Of a DNA stretch of 44,182 nt, positions 5,301-43,212 are shown in pieces. The stretch is from an uncultured Thermoprotei archaeon (lineage in GTDB: Archaea; Thermoproteota; Thermoprotei; Thermofilales; B15-G2). The first letter of the stretch is position 1. Every line of letters begins with the position of its first letter. The position numbers and the translations under genes are program-made. The notes under the pieces are model-generated. The model made no database searches. It was not told the origin of the DNA and was given only the letters and a program-made list of their open reading frames with translations. The stretch is from assembly GCA_965367815.1 (NCBI GenBank), contig CBDUKN010000021.1, positions 1 through 44,182 of the forward strand. The letters run 5' to 3'.

Positions 5301-5946
5301 ACGAACTAGTACCACTATCAATTATAACACTAAGGCTTCTTCACGAAGACATCTGGGTAATCATACTACTAGCAATAATACACTTCGCTCACACCACTAT
5401 CACAAAAGAATATAAACACCTATTGAGCCACTGCAACATAGTACTCACTTAATAGAACATGCCAAGGATTTTCTGCAATACTCCTCCTCAACAAAACTTC
5501 TGCAAGACTTAAGTAGCAAAGCTACTGAAACTCCCTAAGGTACTGGTATAGGTGTCATAAATCAGAGTACTAGCACGGCTGCGCGATAAAAAGCACTATA
5601 ATAGCTAAGTACTCCCACGACATATTCTTCTCCTTAAACTCATTACTCACACAGTCGCCGAGAAAAATAGACAATTGAATCATTTAAGTATAGTGCCTCT
5701 AGTCTTCTTCAAGTTCTTTTTCAATTTTCTGTGCTAGTTCTCTGTAGTAGCCTAGTGCTTCCTCAAGCTCCCTGTGCTCTTTAACTAAGTCTTCTAGCAC
5801 TGCGACAAGCTCTTTTACTTCAGCTAAAGCATTTCTCAAAGAATCTTCTCTACTAACTCCCTTAGCTTCCTCAAAATACTCTTAAATTTTCTCGGTAAAT
5901 AGACTACAAGATAGTATATCGTTAAACATATTTACTCTGAGAAATA

Positions 5947-6123
5947 AAATTATTTAGATGAACTAGAGCAAGCCTAGGCTTGCTCTAGGGAAACAGACCG
6001 ATGGCGAGGGATGAAGCTTATAGGGTTTCCCAAGCTAGTCTACGAAAGGGAGGCCCCGAAATGTTTAGTTTCTTTACCTCTTCTCTCATCCCCCGCTACC
6101 GTTTCTTCTGGAGCGATGGGGGT
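5947..6123 (+). ncRNA. conserved structured leader / left-end RNA or ssDNA element (copy 1)
   Basis: aligns with 39891-40067; three stems with compensatory changes. Confidence 0.7.
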
Positions 6124-6127
6124 GTCT

Positions 6128-7591
6128 ATGGGGCGGGGAGAGTTTGTTGAGATAATAAGAAGTAATGTTTTGAGAATTGAGGCTAGTAGTGAAGTAGAGG
6201 AGTTGTTGAAGAGTCTTCAAAGAGGGTTTAAGAAGTACTTTGATGTAGCGAATAATTTCATTAAACAGTATTATCGAATAAATCACAGGCTTCCGAGGCA
6301 AATAGATGTTTATAGGATTCTCAGGGAATATGGTGTATCTAGTACTGCTGCTAACGAGGTTTCAAAAAAGGTTCTTGAGGCATGGAAAAGCTACTTTGAG
6401 CTTGAGAAAAGAGGATTTAAGGCTAAGCCACCAATATTTAGGAATATTCCAGTGATTCTTCATAATCAGCAGTACAGGGTTTACGCTAGGGGAAAGGACA
6501 ATGAGTGGATTGCTGAGAAAATTGAGTTTTCTTTAAACGGGAAATGGGTTTCACTTAAAGTTAAAGGGAAGCTTAGGTGGATTCCGAGGCTCAATGAAGG
6601 ACTAGTGTTTTATATTAGTGGATTAAAGTGCCCTAGTATAAAGTTAAGATATTGTTTAATAGAAAATTACTTAGTTTTAGGAGAGAGATGTCTTAGTAAA
6701 AATAAGGCAGAGATTTTTCAGCAAAACAATAAGTGGTATTTTGTTTTCAGTGTTTCTTTGAAGATTCCATTGCTGATGCTGAAAGGAAGTGGTGTAGTAG
6801 GGATTGATGTTGGTGTAAGGAATCTTGTAGCGCTGGTCGGAGTCAGTAATAGTGGCGAGGCTTTTTCAATGCTTTTTAAAAGCGGTACTCTTAGAGCTTA
6901 CTGGCTTAAATGTGAGAAGCTTGCAAGAAGAAGGCAAAAGATTGCTTATCGGTATTTCTGGAGAGCGGTACATTGTGCTGAAAACGGTGATAGGGAGAAG
7001 GAAAGAGAATGTTTTTGGGAATATAGGAGGTTTTTGGAGAAAGCTGGACGGTTTAAGAGGAAAGCTAGAGAAGTAAGGAAGAAGGCTGTTAACCAGATGG
7101 CTAAACTGGTAGCAGAGTACTTGGCTTCTAGAGGTGTTTCGGTTGTTTATGTTGGTAATAGTGTTTGTAGAGCTGTTTCTGATGTAGATTTAATTGAAAG
7201 AATAGTATCAAAGCCTACTAAAGAGCTTCTTAGAGGATTCTTTGCTCCAAGACAGATTATTAAGGCTCTTCAGAGGCACTGTGAGGTTAGAGGAATTAGA
7301 GTAATTGAGATTGATGAAATGGGGACTTCTAGTGTTTGTCCAGTATGTGAGAGTAGGGTTGAGAGGAGGTATCGTGGACTAGTTGTTTGTAGAGAACACG
7401 GATGCTTTAATGCTGACTTAGTGGCAGCGTTCAATATTCTTAAAAGAAATACTAGTGTAGAGCTGAGGAAAGAAGATTTGAAGGAATTACTTAATTATCC
7501 TAAGACATATGTTTACTTAGTTAAAGAACAGAAGTGGGTTGAAAGAAAATATTTAGTTTCTTTACCTCCCGAAAGGGAGATACCTCACTAG
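6128..7591 (+). CDS. tnpB: TnpB RNA-guided endonuclease with rearranged RuvC-II (487 aa from ATG 6128)
   Basis: VVGIDVG (RuvC-I), YVGN, IDEMGTS, CPVC...RGLVVC-x2-H and NADLVAAFNI; GGGGTG RBS before 6128; the upstream in-frame extension runs through the structured leader. Confidence 0.9.
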   Translation: MGRGEFVEIIRSNVLRIEASSEVEELLKSLQRGFKKYFDVANNFIKQYYRINHRLPRQIDVYRILREYGVSSTAANEVSKKVLEAWKSYFELEKRGFKAKPPIFRNIPVILHNQQYRVYARGKDNEWIAEKIEFSLNGKWVSLKVKGKLRWIPRLNEGLVFYISGLKCPSIKLRYCLIENYLVLGERCLSKNKAEIFQQNNKWYFVFSVSLKIPLLMLKGSGVVGIDVGVRNLVALVGVSNSGEAFSMLFKSGTLRAYWLKCEKLARRRQKIAYRYFWRAVHCAENGDREKERECFWEYRRFLEKAGRFKRKAREVRKKAVNQMAKLVAEYLASRGVSVVYVGNSVCRAVSDVDLIERIVSKPTKELLRGFFAPRQIIKALQRHCEVRGIRVIEIDEMGTSSVCPVCESRVERRYRGLVVCREHGCFNADLVAAFNILKRNTSVELRKEDLKELLNYPKTYVYLVKEQKWVERKYLVSLPPEREIPH

Positions 7592-7668
7592 CCCCACATA
7601 GGGGTAACTTGCCTGACCCCCAGGCAGGCAATGAAAGGCCAGCTGGCCTAGAGCCGAAAGAGGGGTCC
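7561..7668 (+). ncRNA. putative omega-RNA scaffold / right end of element 1
   Basis: GC-rich hairpins; near-identical to 26882-26987 (minus) although the adjacent coding sequence has diverged. Confidence 0.75.
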
Positions 7669-7870
7669 TGAAGTCTGGATGACCATTAAATTCGCTATTT
7701 CAGCATAAGGCTTGTAAGCTAAGTCTAGCGTGACTTTTCCTAAGACTCTATCTTCCTCATCGATTGCTATTAAAACTTTAACATACTTTCTTGCTTTAAG
7801 CCAGTAGCCAACAAGTTTCTCTGAGAGTTTTCTCCGTATGCCTCGTATAGTTTAGTCATTTTACTAGCAT
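7667..7870 (-). pseudogene. N-terminal fragment of a GNAT acetyltransferase cut by the element 1 right end
   Basis: frameshifted reading gives KVLIAIDEEDRVLGKVTLDLAYKPYAEIANLMV-HPDFR, ending at the element boundary. Confidence 0.65.
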
Positions 7871-26883: not shown

Positions 26884-27175
26884 ACCCCCTCTTTCGGCTC
26901 TAGGCCAGCTGGCCTTTCATTGCCTGCCTGGGGGTCAGGCAAGTTACCCCTATGCGGGGCTAGTGGGGTATCTCCCTTTCGGGTAAAAAGTATTTAATTT
27001 AATTTTTAGGCACCCATTTCTGTTCTCTAATTAAGTAAACATATGTTGTAGGACTGTTAAGTAGGTTCTTTAATTCTTTTTCACTCAATTTAACATTAGT
27101 ATTTCCTCGTAAAATATTATATGCCGCTGCTAAATCCGCGTTAAAGCTTCCACATTTTTCGCACACAAAATAAGC
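26882..27175 (-). mobile_element. truncated TnpB element (C-terminal remnant 26999-27175 + omega-RNA 26882-26987)
   Basis: FVCEKCGSFNADLAAAYNILRGN...TYVYLIREQKWVPKN* is homologous to the end of TnpB1; RNA part near-identical to 7561-7668. Confidence 0.9.
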
Positions 27176-38341: not shown

Positions 38342-38614
38342 GTGAAGAGAATACATGCTTATGTAAGCGGAATTGTTCAGGGTGTAGGATTCCGGTACTT
38401 TGTTTACCGCCACGCTAAAATGCTAGGACTTAAAGGATTTGTACGAAATCTGCCTGACGGTAGAGTAGAAGTAGTAGCTGAAGGAGAAGAAGAAAACTTA
38501 CGTAGACTAGTATCGCTTTTATGGCAAGGACCTGTAGGAGCATATGTTAAAAACGTTGAAGTAGAGTGGAGCGAAGCAAAAAATGAGTACAGCGACTTCG
38601 AGATAATATGGTAA
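38342..38614 (+). CDS. acyP: acylphosphatase
   Basis: VSGIVQGVGFR and GFVRNLPDGRVE motifs. Confidence 0.95.
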   Translation: MKRIHAYVSGIVQGVGFRYFVYRHAKMLGLKGFVRNLPDGRVEVVAEGEEENLRRLVSLLWQGPVGAYVKNVEVEWSEAKNEYSDFEIIW

Positions 38615-38619
38615 ATAAA

Positions 38620-38674
38620 TCAGTTAGCCGCCACCTCATCACTACTCAGCATCGGAGTTGTCTTAGTTCATCAT
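38620..38674 (-). ncRNA. box C/D sRNA
   Basis: minus strand reads ATGATGA-actaagacaactccgatg-CTGA-gta-GTGATGA-ggtggcggctaa-CTGA. Confidence 0.85.
38650..38660 (+). repeat. 11-bp direct repeat CATCGGAGTTG (also at 41806-41816)
   Basis: exact match; both copies are followed by an antisense box C (TCATCA). Confidence 0.8.
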
Positions 38675-39446
38675 CTTAAGTTCTCTGCTATATTTATGTT
38701 AGTCTCTTAAATTTACTAACCATGAAGATATATATGTTTAGTAGATTTAAGAAAATAAAACAAAAATATTTCTATCCAGACAAATTTGATACTTTATTTG
38801 ACTTAACTATTTTATGTTTAAGCTGTGTTCGGATAAATATCTGAATGTTTTTAGTAGAAGTTGAATATTTTTTCAAAAATATTTTGAAAACATACTAGAA
38901 AAACTATGGAATAAATACATTCACTTAAATCGCGTAGATCATTTTGTAGAAAAACATAGTCAGAGTGATTTAATAAAAAATAGGTGTGCTATTATCGTGT
39001 TTCAAAACTAAAATAATGATTCTATTACAATATTTTTCAAATAATTCTCTCTAGGAAATAACATTTAATTGGTCTTGGCGAGAAATATTGCGTGGATATT
39101 TTAGCAGAGTGAAGTTACTAGTATTTTTAAAAATAATTATAATGGTTTATTTATTTTATAGTCTAGCACTTAAAGAATGTGACTGATAAATTCAATATAT
39201 TTTAAGGAGTTTATTTTAAAAATGTAGGAGGCTTAGTCTGTGAAGAGTGAGCGTATTTGATTCCATATGCTTATTTTGGGTTCTTCTATCCACCATCCGC
39301 CTATAACAGTAAGTATTCCGTGAAACGAGTCCACGATAACTCTTCTCGCTTGATACCTGCGGTTTTCGAGTTCAATTGATTAAAGATTAGTAGAAAATAC
39401 TGCTTTGTGCAAAATTCTGATATAGAATATATGCTAAAATATCGTG

Positions 39447-39870
39447 ATGAGAAAAAGAACTCTACTCCATTATTAGAGAAAAGTTCGAAGAACTCTTTAA
39501 ACTGAAAGGTTTTAAGGAAGTATATCTTGAAGAAACTCATACTGGAAAATTCAGCAATAAACTTAAAGAAAAATACCTGATTACATGCACATAGTATTTG
39601 TTTTTCTCAATGAAATAGCACCAGATATAACAGGCTTTGTTGAAAAGAGTACCAGGGATTTACTTCAACAGAATTTGTTGTAATTGAAGTCAAAACAAGA
39701 AAATAAAACTTGACCACATATACCAGGTCAAAAAGTACGCCGAACTACTTAATGCAACCTATGCATTTCTAGTATCAACAGAGAAAATACCAGTAGAAAT
39801 AAAAAGGCTATGTAAAAAAGTTTACTCGATCTTCTTGGCAAATGGACTACAAGAGAGTACACAATAAAGT
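39447..39870 (+). pseudogene. PD-(D/E)XK restriction-like nuclease, multiply frameshifted
   Basis: joined frames give EKELY...IAPDITGF...VVIEVK...IYQVKKYAELL. Confidence 0.65.
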
Positions 39871-39890
39871 ATTTATTTTTGATAATATAT

Positions 39891-40238
39891 AAATTATTTA
39901 GATGAACCGAGGGTAGCTGAGCTATCCTCGGGGAAACAGACCAATGTAAGGGATGAAGCTTATAGGGCTTCCCTAGCCTGTCGAGTAAAAGGGAGGCCCC
40001 GAAATGTTTATTTTCTTTACTTCTCCTCTCATCCCCCGCTACCGTGTTTTTCTGGAGCGATGGGGGATGGGAGGAGAGGAGCCCCGCGACCAAAATGAGC
40101 GGGGACTAGGGGAAACGGCTATAGCCGAATGCTCCCCTGCTCCTAAGGCATTTAGCTGATGAAGGGGTGATTCCGGGGGCCTTACAGTACACAAGTATAC
40201 AGTGTACGGTGCGCTGGGGGTCGTCACGGGGGTTTAGT
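39891..40238 (+). ncRNA. structured leader RNA (copy 2 of shared leader plus extra module)
   Basis: GC-rich stems in AT-rich context; 39891-40067 homologous to 5947-6123. Confidence 0.7.
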
Positions 40239-40339
40239 AAACAGTGTTCATTGATGTTTAGCCTATATACCGATATTTGATTGACTATATTGGTTTATTG
40301 TATGCAGTGTTTTTGAGTAATGTTTCAGAGGTACTAGAG

Positions 40340-40440
40340 CTCTCTGGGGGAGTGGAGCTTTCTCCCAGGGCTCCCGCCACCGTTTCTTTTGGGGCGATGG
40401 GGGCTCTGGGGGAGGCGATGAAACTCCCCCAGAGAGGTGA
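40340..40440 (+). promoter_or_regulatory. 5'-UTR hairpin with K-turn overlapping the Shine-Dalgarno GAGGTGA
   Basis: 14-bp stem 40340-40353/40423-40436; GGA-GC / GC-GAT-GAA K-turn pattern; SD at 40434-40440. Confidence 0.65.
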
Positions 40441-40444
40441 AAAT

Positions 40445-41629
40445 ATGAAAAAAGAAGTATTTGCAGCTTTTAGATTTAGAGTAAAGGTAAGAAAAGAGGA
40501 GGCGAGGAAGATATACGAGGTAATGAAAAGGTACCGAGAGAATATTAAGAAAATTAAGGTTCTAGTGAAGCTTCTGACAAAGCAGGGTTATAGCGAAGAA
40601 GAAGCGCTTAGGATTGCTGTTCAACGCTATAGGATGAAGAATTTGATTATACGTAATAGAGAGAAGTTGGTTGAAGCGTATATTAAGTCGAAGTGTTATC
40701 GAGCGGATTCATTAATTCTATTTAACAGATATGGCTACAAGTATACCTGCTATATAGGTTTGAAAAACAAGGCTTTCCTTAGAATTGGAGGCGAAATTAA
40801 CACATGGCTCCCAGTAAAGAGAAGCATATTCAAAGCTGTTAAGAAGAGGGAAGAGTGGGGCTGGAAACCAGTATTCATTATACTGAAGTTTCTTGGCTTT
40901 AGTAAGAGGAATGGATTATTTGAAGTCGCTTTGATATTCAAGGTTCCAGCGAAGAAGATTTCTTTAAGTGATGTTAAGAGTGCGTTAAGTGAGAATAGGC
41001 TTTCGGTAATTAGTATTGATATTAATGCTATTCATGGTACTTATACTGGTTTATTTAGAGTTCAGGGTAGTGAATTGAAGTTAATTAATGTTAGAAAAAC
41101 TAATACTAGCTGGCGTCTAGTGGAAAGACATATTGAAAGAATTTCAGAGCTTAAGAGTAAGCTTAGGAAGAAAGGATTGTCTCCAAGAGAGTTCAGAGAA
41201 CTAAGGCAACTTGAAAGAAGGATAAGAAACCTTATTCAGTATCCTAAGAGAAAGGGTCTCGGAGTTCTAAGAGAATTGATTAGGAGAGAACAGAAATTAG
41301 GTAGGGTTGTGGTTATTGCAGTAGAGAATATTGATAAAAGGGATATTGAAAAAATGTACAACAATACTAGTAGTGTTAATAGGGCTATTCACTTATTTAT
41401 GCAGGGATGGTTTAAGAAAGTAAAGTTCTTAGCTAGAATAGAGGGGGCGTTCTTCATGGTTGTCGATAAAAGTTGTTCTTCGAAACAGTGCCCAGTATGC
41501 GGTAAATTAATGAAGTTTATTGACAATAGATGGCTTTACTGTAGTCAATGTAGTAAAAGTTATCATAGAGACTTAGCTGCTTTGAGAAATTTAGCGAAAA
41601 GAGCATTAGAGAAAATAAAGGAAACATAA
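40445..41629 (+). CDS. tnpB: TnpB / Cas12f-like RNA-guided endonuclease (394 aa from ATG 40445)
   Basis: ISIDIN, IAVENI, SSKQCPVC...CSQC and HRDLAALRNL: D-E-D triad plus Zn finger; GAGGTGA RBS. Confidence 0.85.
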   Translation: MKKEVFAAFRFRVKVRKEEARKIYEVMKRYRENIKKIKVLVKLLTKQGYSEEEALRIAVQRYRMKNLIIRNREKLVEAYIKSKCYRADSLILFNRYGYKYTCYIGLKNKAFLRIGGEINTWLPVKRSIFKAVKKREEWGWKPVFIILKFLGFSKRNGLFEVALIFKVPAKKISLSDVKSALSENRLSVISIDINAIHGTYTGLFRVQGSELKLINVRKTNTSWRLVERHIERISELKSKLRKKGLSPREFRELRQLERRIRNLIQYPKRKGLGVLRELIRREQKLGRVVVIAVENIDKRDIEKMYNNTSSVNRAIHLFMQGWFKKVKFLARIEGAFFMVVDKSCSSKQCPVCGKLMKFIDNRWLYCSQCSKSYHRDLAALRNLAKRALEKIKET

Positions 41630-41634
41630 GACTT

Positions 41635-41805
41635 TTTACCTTAAAGAGCCTTCTAGGGACAATTGTCCCTAGAAGGGACGATATCTAGTCAGAACTGACC
41701 CCGTGACGACCCCCAGCCCCCGCGATGAAGGCGGGTGCTCCTCCTCTCGATTAGGGGGAGATGACCCCCTTAAAGGAGCTCCGCCCAACACGCGGGGAAA
41801 CAGAA
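41635..41805 (+). ncRNA. putative omega-RNA / right end of element 2
   Basis: 28-bp palindrome 41649-41676; nested stems CCCCGCG/CGCGGGG and GGCGG/CCGCC; GATGA motifs. Confidence 0.65.
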
Positions 41806-41824
41806 CATCGGAGTTGATCATCAC
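41806..41824 (-). pseudogene. orphan 5' half of a box C/D sRNA
   Basis: minus strand GTGATGA + 12-nt guide TCAACTCCGATG, with D' replaced by the element end. Confidence 0.55.
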
Positions 41825-41862
41825 TCAATTTCAAATATACGTTCTAACAAATTAGTATTTAA

Positions 41863-42378
41863 TTATAGTTTTTCTAGTCTTTTTCGCATCTCTAAGTATA
41901 CTTCAGTAGACAGCCTAAATCCACTTACTACAAGTCTATTTAGCAGCTCTAATGCTTTTGTCGATGAAATAAGTCCTTTTCTTACAGCCATGGTAATAAT
42001 GTATAAAGTACCATGAACTTCAATACCCAGCATACGCGCAGCGATCCGCCCTAGTTTGTCGTCAATAATTACATGGCAAGGCTTGTAGGCTAAAGCTAAC
42101 GCTAAAACTTCTGCCTCTCCTCTATCAAGACACGGAAAAAGACGTAGTATACGCTCGACTTCTCGAGAAGAAACCTCTAAAATAGATAATTGTCTACTAT
42201 CAACAGCTTTCTTTACGGCTATAGCGTCTTTGAATCCTTTTTCTAAGCCTTTAATTACAACCTCTCTATACACTTCTAGTGGAATGAGTACCTCTGTGTA
42301 AATGGATAAAAGAAGATTTAGGGCACAGGCTTTCGCTAAATAAATCAGAGGAGAAGAGTTAACTACTGCTCTCTTCAC
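41863..42378 (-). CDS. DUF3368 PIN-domain protein
   Basis: VVNSSPLI, LDRGEAE, IIDD and HGTL motifs. Confidence 0.9.
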   Translation of the reverse strand: MKRAVVNSSPLIYLAKACALNLLLSIYTEVLIPLEVYREVVIKGLEKGFKDAIAVKKAVDSRQLSILEVSSREVERILRLFPCLDRGEAEVLALALAYKPCHVIIDDKLGRIAARMLGIEVHGTLYIITMAVRKGLISSTKALELLNRLVVSGFRLSTEVYLEMRKRLEKL

Positions 42379-42673
42379 TTAAAGCCGCCTCAAAGTCTTC
42401 TTTAAGATCTCTTAGAGTATACTGAATAGTTACTCCATACTTTTCAAGCATATCTACTAACTCCCATAGACTAACACCAGCCAACCGTGCCGCTTTCCAG
42501 AGCGTAACTTTACCTTCAGAGTATAACTTTAAGGCAATCTTAATTTTTCGTTCTCTAACTCCTTCTTCAAGTATTTCTCTAATCACCTCTGCTTTATCTC
42601 TTCCCTCAAGTTCAGCTAGTTCCTCTAACTCTTTCCTAATTTTCTTTGGTACCCTAACAGACAGCACTTCCAT
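42359..42673 (-). CDS. UPF0175 family antitoxin with N-terminal RHH
   Basis: LSVRVPK and YSEGKVTLWKAARLAGVS motifs. Confidence 0.9.
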   Translation of the reverse strand: MEVLSVRVPKKIRKELEELAELEGRDKAEVIREILEEGVRERKIKIALKLYSEGKVTLWKAARLAGVSLWELVDMLEKYGVTIQYTLRDLKEDFEAALSEESSS

Positions 42674-42774
42674 TAATGTCTCCTTGTATACGAGTGTATA
42701 CTAGTATTTAAACTCATTTCACTGAAATACCAACGCAGTCGAGCTGGTCGCTTTTTACACTAAGAGGCTCCTTA

Positions 42775-43212
42775 TTAAGCTCTTTTAGTAGCTACTTTGC
42801 TTTGAAGAGACTCCTCTAATGCTTTCTTAATTGATATATAAGCTGGTATTAGAAAGAAGAGTGCTGGAAGTAAGAAAAGCCATATTCCTGTCGAGTGGAA
42901 GCCAAAGAAACATAATCCTGGTATCAGGCACATTATACCGAATACTTGAGAAAGAAACAGTTCATAATTCTTTTTAGCAACAAGTAAACTATGTAAGGTA
43001 CCGCGAATCCTACTATAAACAGCGGCGAATATACAGTAGCAGGAAAATCCTGCAAAGGATGCGAAAACGCAGATTATGCATATAACTATGCTATTCCAGT
43101 ATATTCTCCTTTCATGAAAATCAATTCTTTTTCTAACAATATATATTTTTCTTAATAACTTTAAGTAAGTGGGTCTCTGCCCTTTCAAAATTTTTAGCTG
43201 AACATACTTCAA
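42775..43212 (-). CDS. hypothetical membrane protein (possibly frameshifted)
   Basis: hydrophobic segments; start uncertain. Confidence 0.4.
   Translation of the reverse strand: MKYVQLKILKGQRPTYLKLLRKIYIVRKRIDFHERRIYWNSIVICIICVFASFAGFSCYCIFAAVYSRIRGTLHSLLVAKKNYELFLSQVFGIMCLIPGLCFFGFHSTGIWLFLLPALFFLIPAYISIKKALEESLQSKVATKRA

Follow-up and report, generated by a model that had tools for sequence, protein, structure and literature searches.

A conserved and probably functional RNA pairing, possibly an antisense switch on the guide RNA, in a small archaeal TnpB lineage

The window analysed here is a 44,182-nt stretch of DNA from an uncultured Thermoprotei archaeon (contig CBDUKN010000021.1 of assembly GCA_965367815.1), and near its 3′ end it holds an element built around tnpB2, a gene of the TnpB nuclease family. 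Upstream of tnpB2 lies a structured leader, whose last part is the reverse complement of a segment in the RNA predicted to follow the gene, the guide RNA (omegaRNA) scaffold. Together they make up what is probably a functional RNA pairing, one that is conserved within a small lineage of archaeal TnpB elements. We propose, with a probability of about one half, that the resulting stem is an off-switch, in which an antisense stretch of the leader pairs with the element's own guide RNA scaffold and damps TnpB. The complementarity, its conservation, its family-specific re-targeting and its coverage of one partner in the guide-adjacent pairing of the scaffold can be read directly from the sequences; transcription of the leader, pairing in the cell and inhibition are likely steps that we infer from them.

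The two arms of the stem, 40213-40231 and 41699-41717, are perfect reverse complements separated by 1467 nt. Inward of a 2-nt bulge (40232-40233) the pairing continues between 40234-40238 and 41694-41698, with one G-U pair among 5 bp. A sequence-only reading of this DNA had pointed out a perfect 19-bp stem around the tnpB2 open reading frame (ORF), with an inward extension including a G-U pair and with arms internal rather than terminal to the element. The stem and its extension are confirmed, and both arms are indeed internal, since homologs share sequence beyond each of them. When the leader (39900-40444) and the 3′ region (41630-41815) were compared in 5000 dinucleotide shuffles, no perfect complement was longer than 15 nt; the observed one has 19. 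The genome that holds the window (G000, a 2.45 Mb assembly, 99.4% complete) contains nine perfect inverted repeats of at least 17 nt at 0.3–4 kb spacing, four of them at least 19 nt; the length is thus uncommon yet not unique, and conservation is the stronger argument. Two additional pairings proposed in the same reading exist as letters and find no support as pairs: one strand of the first (41716-41722) overlaps both the 19-bp arm and a covarying terminal stem of the scaffold, and at most 4–5 bp of it could form in the homologous locus L033, while for the second, 40163-40168 has no L033 counterpart in the alignment.

In what follows, C-numbers (C2, C4, C5, C7, C8, C15, C17, C26, C27) denote tnpB1 or tnpB2 copies in G000 and L-numbers the loci compared; type 1 refers to the tnpB1 family and type 2 to the tnpB2 family, which includes the leaders of the window, L033 and L034. 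L031 represents the window locus over again and was excluded from independent counts. The 3′ end of L034 lies beyond its contig, leaving the arm readable and the scaffold side not; the 3′ end of C27 is likewise beyond its contig, and its arm was compared with the scaffolds of other copies. L095, a deleted derivative in a sister genome, carries arm and scaffold on one molecule.

The arm is identical at 19/19 positions between the window and L033 (80% protein identity), while the region as a whole is 69% identical, and L034 also retains it at 19/19. The same-molecule helix of L033 is 25 bp long, with two G-U pairs and zero mismatches, and its inward extension differs from that of the window on both strands in step. 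Besides the 19 bp + 5 of the window, the remaining same-molecule helices are those of C8 (∼20 bp, one mismatch) and L095 (15 positions, one G-U, one mismatch). About 14 of 15 independent target substitutions, by our count across copies, are G-U compatible, as RNA pairing predicts.

Re-targeting is seen in tnpB1, a second, barely related tnpB family in G000. The leader of the tnpB1 copy C27 is homologous in its 5′ part to that of the window (72% over 125 nt) and is accompanied by the same divergent gene, d. At the position of the arm it has a different sequence, complementary at 20/20 positions to the tnpB1 scaffolds of C26, C5 and C7. Between the families, the spacers that follow the arm show weak homology, their alignment score being reached by 2 to 43 of 500 shuffles in six comparisons. 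This swap of a whole helix between families is the best evidence for selection on pairing. The sequence-only reading had named covariation in homologous loci as a check and had held that the stem, if absent from homologs and if the 3′ RNA alone were fully active, would be a remnant; since homologs retain the stem and the second TnpB family has a re-targeted version of it, the first of these does not apply and it is not a one-off remnant.

Co-folding of leader and scaffold, also suggested in that reading, yields family-specific pairing at 80 °C. With type-2 scaffolds the longest helices of the type-2 leaders (window, L033, L034) are 10–26 bp (−16 to −24 kcal/mol), and with type-1 scaffolds 0–12 bp; the C27 leader forms 17–24 bp with type-1 scaffolds and 4–8 bp with type-2 scaffolds. 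Whole transcripts were folded at the same temperature as minimum-energy folds only, and the stem is present in those of the window and L033. Subtracting opening costs from the duplex energy at 80 °C leaves about −15 kcal/mol for the window, −14 for L033 and −3 for C8, the pseudoknot being uncounted.

What the arm would cover is a particular part of the predicted scaffold, which consists of a hairpin, a weakly structured stretch that includes the 3′ arm and a terminal domain. Among six type-2 copies the predicted structure is 93% paired, with eight pairs changed on both sides, and 35–57% paired when slid out of register; in the helices of the terminal domain, two-sided change occurs in 7 of 18 pairs. 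Similarity among these copies stops near 41804-41811, and a GG lies near the right end in five of the six. In both families the arm covers 19–25 bases just 5′ of the terminal hairpin, including the upstream partner of a guide-adjacent pairing. For type 1 that partner is a 6-mer complementary to the six bases at the scaffold end, with 6/6 bp in 7 of 10 copies (C8 included) and five plus a G-U in one more; there is no covariation because the bases hardly vary. For type 2 a 4-bp pairing with the scaffold end is possible in four of six copies, with one two-sided change (C-G in two, U-A in two). A pseudoknot of this kind is described, in passages of three studies, as conserved across TnpB systems and essential for cleavage (10.1101/2023.11.20.567912, PMC13521648, PMC11061315). 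As predicted from sequence, the long antisense helix and the guide-adjacent pairing are mutually exclusive.

An anti-omegaRNA switch might work as follows. Transcription from a promoter near 39870 would yield the leader, whether as an RNA of its own or as the beginning of a long tnpB message, and its arm would pair with the scaffold in cis or in trans. Pairing would displace the pseudoknot and block a productive TnpB-omegaRNA complex, such that the long transcript would stay a message and DNA cutting would be damped. The scaffold could be freed if the arm turned to weaker local partners within the leader, if the RNA were processed, or if transcription began 3′ of the arm, in the AT-rich spacer. 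Copies that have lost the module between its direct repeats would be de-repressed.

Copies without the module do occur. Eight leaders of tnpB1 or tnpB2 copies in G000 are readable; the arm is present in those of the window, C8 and C27 and absent from the other five (window 6011-7591, C26, C4, C7, C15), three of which have open frames (window 6011-7591, C26, C15). The module is therefore dispensable in cis, to judge by these sequences. In two arm-less copies the junction is at the direct-repeat motif (40032..40066 / ∼40372-40403), which flanks the module on both sides, suggesting deletion. A 2-nt insertion interrupts the target in all three type-2 scaffolds that have no arm in cis and in neither of the two with a known cis arm, a correlation that is suggestive only, because C17 and C2 have lost their original leaders. 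One arm-less tnpB1 element lies in the window itself (5886-7680); it shares the first ∼240 nt of the leader (80% over 242 nt, window 5886-6122), with the antisense module absent, and a 98%-identical remnant of its right end is found at ∼26886-27166 (−).

Several points weigh against a switch. The case is drawn from sequence and predicted folds, and the fold energies leave out pseudoknots and kink-turns, a limit of the program. In the window copy and in C2 only one of four guide-adjacent pairs is possible in the homologous register, so that the structure to be blocked is degenerate in this very copy. The 80 °C fold of C8 keeps the arm in local pairs, off the scaffold. No position of the 19-bp core has changed on both sides within a family, and G-U-compatible changes are also predicted by internal pairs of the scaffold together with a C-rich target. 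The distinct same-molecule pairs number four only, all from one genus-level lineage. Finally, the three arm-bearing copies could supply the arm in trans and rescue the arm-less ones, making dispensability in cis compatible with a constructive role.

Outside this lineage a survey of tnpB loci scored 63 rows, 6 from the lineage itself and 57 distant (48 distinct), with only ORF ends recognised by pattern. Three of the 48 distinct distant loci have long inverted copies of end sequence and three more pass 40 shuffles marginally; a short fixed arm is thus not general and is so far particular to this lineage. Distant loci in which end sequence recurs in inverted form upstream of tnpB are L054 (155 bp, perfect), L023 (118 bp), L070 (38 bp) and L008 (26 bp, beside a tRNA-like gene).

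A constructive role is the core of an alternative that we consider rather unlikely: a two-piece scaffold, in which the leader acts like a trans-activating CRISPR RNA (tracrRNA), the helix is part of the active TnpB complex, and copies without the arm are supplied in trans. The target is hardly paired when the 3′ RNA is folded by itself, opening it at 80 °C costing 1.1 kcal/mol in the window and 1.1–2.4 in type 2 (pseudoknot excluded), and its 9-nt core is invariant in 6/6 type-2 copies. The perfect stem of the window stands beside a degenerate guide-adjacent pairing, and the TnpB2 model is equally close to TnpB and to Cas12f, which uses a tracrRNA. Splitting of a TnpB RNA into tracrRNA and CRISPR RNA (crRNA) is known in TranC, according to passages of a review (PMC13639567). 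The geometry is nevertheless unlike that of a tracrRNA:repeat helix, which is guide-adjacent; here the helix would lie 60–90 nt upstream of the guide, or 87–113 nt short of the predicted scaffold end, and it would exclude a pairing that is conserved in the arm-bearing C8 and L033. Three ORFs are intact without a cis arm, and the arm-less type-2 scaffolds have the target insertion described above. No repeat array follows the scaffold in the sequences examined, nor, as would be expected of dual-RNA type V or TranC systems, was one found among the 20 largest repeat families listed for 38500-43000. The sequence-only reading had offered a scaffold assembled from halves 5′ and 3′ of the ORF. The pairing behind that idea is real, conserved and probably of RNA type, but assembly is the less supported part: a covarying terminal domain is already present within the 3′ RNA, and the 5′ arm would displace the guide-adjacent pairing there. 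It is correspondingly improbable that this is a natural two-RNA TnpB without a CRISPR array, whose leader, with its own promoter, is a re-programmable partner needed to build the active scaffold and has moved between unrelated TnpB families by swap of a 20-base tail. If true, a tracrRNA-like RNA would have arisen ahead of any array, and the element would be a living model for the origin of tracrRNA.

We also think it unlikely that the arm is a leftover, whether left behind by an inverted copy of the right end or serving mainly as a strand in the local fold of the leader, with a long-range match that is functionless today. Inverted right-end copies are real upstream of distant tnpB genes (L054, L070 and L023 above), the module is absent from five of eight copies and the core shows zero two-sided changes. 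The arm also has local partners in every leader (12–19 positions in predicted folds), and at 80 °C the local fold is the preferred one in C8. These partners are short, however, and differ from copy to copy, whereas homologous leaders carry, at one and the same position, two different arms that each fit one of two unrelated scaffolds; a neutral origin would need two independent inversions at the same spot, covering the same structural element. Identity of the arm far above that of its region, and extension strands that change in step between the window and L033, likewise do not suit a leftover.

Function at the level of DNA, with the arms as inverted binding sites for a transposase or regulator or as partners in single-stranded DNA during mobilisation, is quite doubtful. 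It could account for the strong conservation of the arms, for a similar 9-mer that occurs twice in the right end (41700, 41719) and for the GG near five of six type-2 right ends, which is IS607-like. The arms are nonetheless internal, with conserved element sequence outside both, and terminal inverted repeats with unrelated flanks, the mark of a cut-and-paste element, were not found, the outside sequence being common to homologs. Differences in the arms lean towards plus-strand G-U over A-C. In C15, where the 5′ arm is missing, a 7-nt repeat is nevertheless found at each of the two predicted junctions. As for enzymes, the Y1 transposase of IS200/IS605 elements (PF01797) has no match in G000 (99.4% complete), and the one serine recombinase seen there, of the class that IS607-type elements carry next to tnpB, is a lone resolvase elsewhere in the genome.

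The sequence-only reading had further suggested an intron-like fold, with the ORF in a spliced or circularised loop as in archaeal homing-endonuclease introns or IStrons; this finds no support and is very improbable. The geometry does resemble that of long processing stems. Archaeal introns are defined by a stable bulge-helix-bulge at the junction; a slipped register of this kind can be drawn in the window and L033, but it is worse than the perfect helix by 11.5 (80 °C) to 20 kcal/mol (37 °C), and none is found in C8. No Rfam intron family matches the window region or nine related loci, in a scan that covered joined halves only in the natural deletion L095, and letters that resemble group I P7 by eye in the window are not conserved in L031, L033 and L034. 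The flanks of the stem are element sequence, with no host gene interrupted. Circular omegaRNAs exist in archaea, and passages of the report describing them find no such motif at the circles (PMC12558985).

Hardly credible is a second guide, whereby TnpB would load the leader and be directed by its 3′ tail to the element's own right-end DNA: the arm is of guide length and in both families starts with the same bases as the scaffold end, but any sequence complementary to the pseudoknot partner would share those bases, the leader is without the scaffold's terminal domain, and self-cleavage would be costly.

TnpB2 matches Pfam PF07282 above its cut-off (E 1.8e-9) and scores far below the cut-offs of the NCBIfam TnpB models. 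The RuvC residues D192/E294/D376 and four zinc-finger cysteines are invariant among 11 homologs, and the structural model, with a predicted local distance difference test score (pLDDT) of 81, matches Cas12f and TnpB structures (E ∼1e-11). The element thus has the TnpB fold with RuvC D-E-D and zinc finger of an OMEGA element, together with a conserved structured RNA at the 3′ end of the gene followed by a variable flank. The TnpB2 clade is tiny, comprising 12 clusters at 90% identity and one further relative at 32%; one member is labelled Thermoprotei by its source. A search of 400 further genomes from the phylum with a tnpB2 profile (E 1e-20) found no match, and at E 1e-25 tnpB1 was found in 2 of 120 genomes of the class, one of them G000. 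Wider homologs were found neither in viral contigs nor in a pattern scan of GTDB. Features of the element are collected in Table 1.

Table 1. Observed and predicted features of the tnpB2 element (window coordinates)
Feature	Position	Strand	Basis
5′ remnant of divergent gene d (∼226 aa where whole), which precedes this leader type	39821..39859	−	tblastn, 79% over 33 aa to L034 protein
Predicted overlapping divergent promoters (BRE/TATA-like boxes) for leader and d gene	39862..39892	.	Sequence and position in homologs
Structured GC-rich leader RNA, ∼340 nt: run of hairpins, U-tract 40007-40020, invariant 20-mer 39939-39958	39900..40245	+	GC content, folds
Direct repeat copy 1 (copy 2 at ∼40372-40403), bracketing the antisense module	40032..40066	+	
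Putative anti-omegaRNA segment, 5′ arm of the 19-bp stem, ending the leader	40213..40231	+	19/19 identical in L033 and L034
Inward extension of 5′ arm, 5 bp, one G-U	40234..40238	+	Differs from L033 in step with partner strand
AT-rich spacer with imperfect palindrome; may be a second promoter or operator for tnpB	40239..40339	+	Weak homology between the families
5′ untranslated region (5′-UTR) hairpin with kink-turn-like motif just 5′ of start codon	40340..40436	+	Fold; conserved in L033, L034, L032
tnpB2 ORF, 394 aa	40445..41629	+	Pfam, residues, model
First hairpin of predicted omegaRNA, behind U-tract at stop codon	41649..41676	+	
Putative antisense target: 3′ arm 41699-41717 and extension 41694-41698	41694..41717	+	
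Terminal stem-loop domain of predicted omegaRNA (41718-41724 with 41791-41797, plus upper stems)	41718..41797	+	Covariation
Predicted right end of element, approximate; the guide would come next	41798..41811	+	Similarity of six copies stops here

The boxes at 39862..39892 were assigned by the archaeal promoter consensus, and the kink-turn-like label at 40340..40436 by the K-turn consensus. The leader has a GC content of 52–54%, against ∼25–35% in its flanks, and matches no Rfam family. A likeness to RNase P RNA, judged by eye from RNase P motifs, was rejected, since their order is wrong and they are absent in L033. Group I, hammerhead and H/ACA readings were rejected as well, with no Rfam support, and a sigma-70 promoter scan was uninformative, the host being an archaeon. 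RNase P RNA itself was not found in G000 (99.4% complete) with RF00373 and RF02357, and may be unassembled, divergent or replaced by protein. An AT-rich 9-mer is common to the spacer 40239-40339, where it is palindromic, and to the sequence upstream of the leader in C8, C7 and C4, standing before both leader and tnpB UTR; it is possibly an operator. In L031 (1470-1480) about 10 bases of the kink-turn strand in the 5′-UTR look inverted relative to the window, the rest being nearly identical.

Leaders, divergent genes and tnpB families are mixed among the G000 copies. The d gene is whole in L033 (276-965, −), L034 and C27, and is also present in C6 and C36; L034 has a tandem paralog of it. For its protein no family or fold was found (model pLDDT 41); it has three database relatives only, and the predicted order of strands and helices is RNase H-like in an unreliable model. 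A second divergent gene, mostly in fragments, precedes elements C2, C7, C4, C15, C5 and C8. Leaders of a type we call e have another complementary stretch, this one matching the beginning of the tnpB1 scaffold, 14/14 in C8 (L037) and 13 plus one G-U in C7 (L044), and the C8 leader also holds a decoy copy of this scaffold-start target. The middle hairpins of the C27 leader recur in L089 (G000 C35:3560-3710) before a gene for a 603-aa membrane ATPase, on a small plasmid- or virus-like contig with no tnpB.

Flanking the element in the window are a box C/D small RNA-like gene upstream (38617-38678, −; Rfam snoPyro_CD at 31 bits, below the gathering score of 45) and, directly past the right end (41863-42673, −), a pair of genes of DUF3368 (PIN-type) and ribbon-helix-helix (RHH)/UPF0175 families, likely a toxin-antitoxin module.

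How TnpB, the ancestor of Cas12, is restrained from ill-timed cutting is an open question, and passages of an in vitro study with an inhibitory mRNA stretch ask whether such control is conserved (PMC10278001). An arm conserved and re-targeted between two nuclease families would offer a sharp test of RNA-based self-restraint, and possibly a source of natural ‘anti-guide’ switches for compact thermostable editors. Our literature search, over titles, abstract openings and passages and covering few subscription papers, found no description of a dedicated upstream anti-omegaRNA segment.

Known systems share parts of this arrangement, among them the antisense RNA of IS200, named art200. In passages of the study of AmaTnpB (Nety et al. 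2023, PMC10278001), part of the protein's own mRNA inhibits TnpB in vitro, and complementarity to the omegaRNA is proposed. As there, RNA that the element itself encodes upstream of its omegaRNA would lower DNA cleavage here, an effect measured for AmaTnpB and inferred for TnpB2. The AmaTnpB stretch, of 50 nt, lies inside the coding sequence, its pairing is hypothesised and its conservation is left open in those passages; the present match, known from sequence, is non-coding, 19–25 bp long, placed in a separate leader, conserved and re-targeted between two families. IStrons (CboIStron, IS607 family) also set a structured left-end RNA against a right-end omegaRNA, with exclusive fates decided through the pseudoknot and with GG right ends, as passages of two papers describe (10.1101/2023.11.20.567912, PMC13521648), but here there is no group I intron core and no transposase gene, and the competitor would be a plain antisense helix rather than a splice site.

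With the TnpB-omegaRNA systems of IS200/IS605 and IS607 elements (ISDra2, ISFba1; PDB 8h1j, 8iaz; passages of PMC11061315) the element shares the RuvC D-E-D, the zinc finger, the TnpB/Cas12f fold and a predicted structured RNA past the stop codon, for which a guide-adjacent pairing is possible in four of six type-2 copies; it differs in belonging to a tiny divergent clade, with no tnpA found and with a ∼545-nt 5′ region that contains the antisense arm. The tracrRNA:crRNA pairs of TranC and Cas12f (Jin et al. 2025, as covered in passages of the review PMC13639567) likewise consist of two pairable RNA pieces on either side of, or near, the nuclease gene, whereas here no repeat array is seen and the helix, at a distance from the guide, would disrupt the guide-adjacent pairing rather than build it. 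In the antisense control of tnpA in IS200, as outlined in passages of PMC10278001, a transposon also restrains itself by RNA pairing; there an opposite-strand RNA acts on the transposase message, while here a leader segment from the same strand would act on the guide scaffold.

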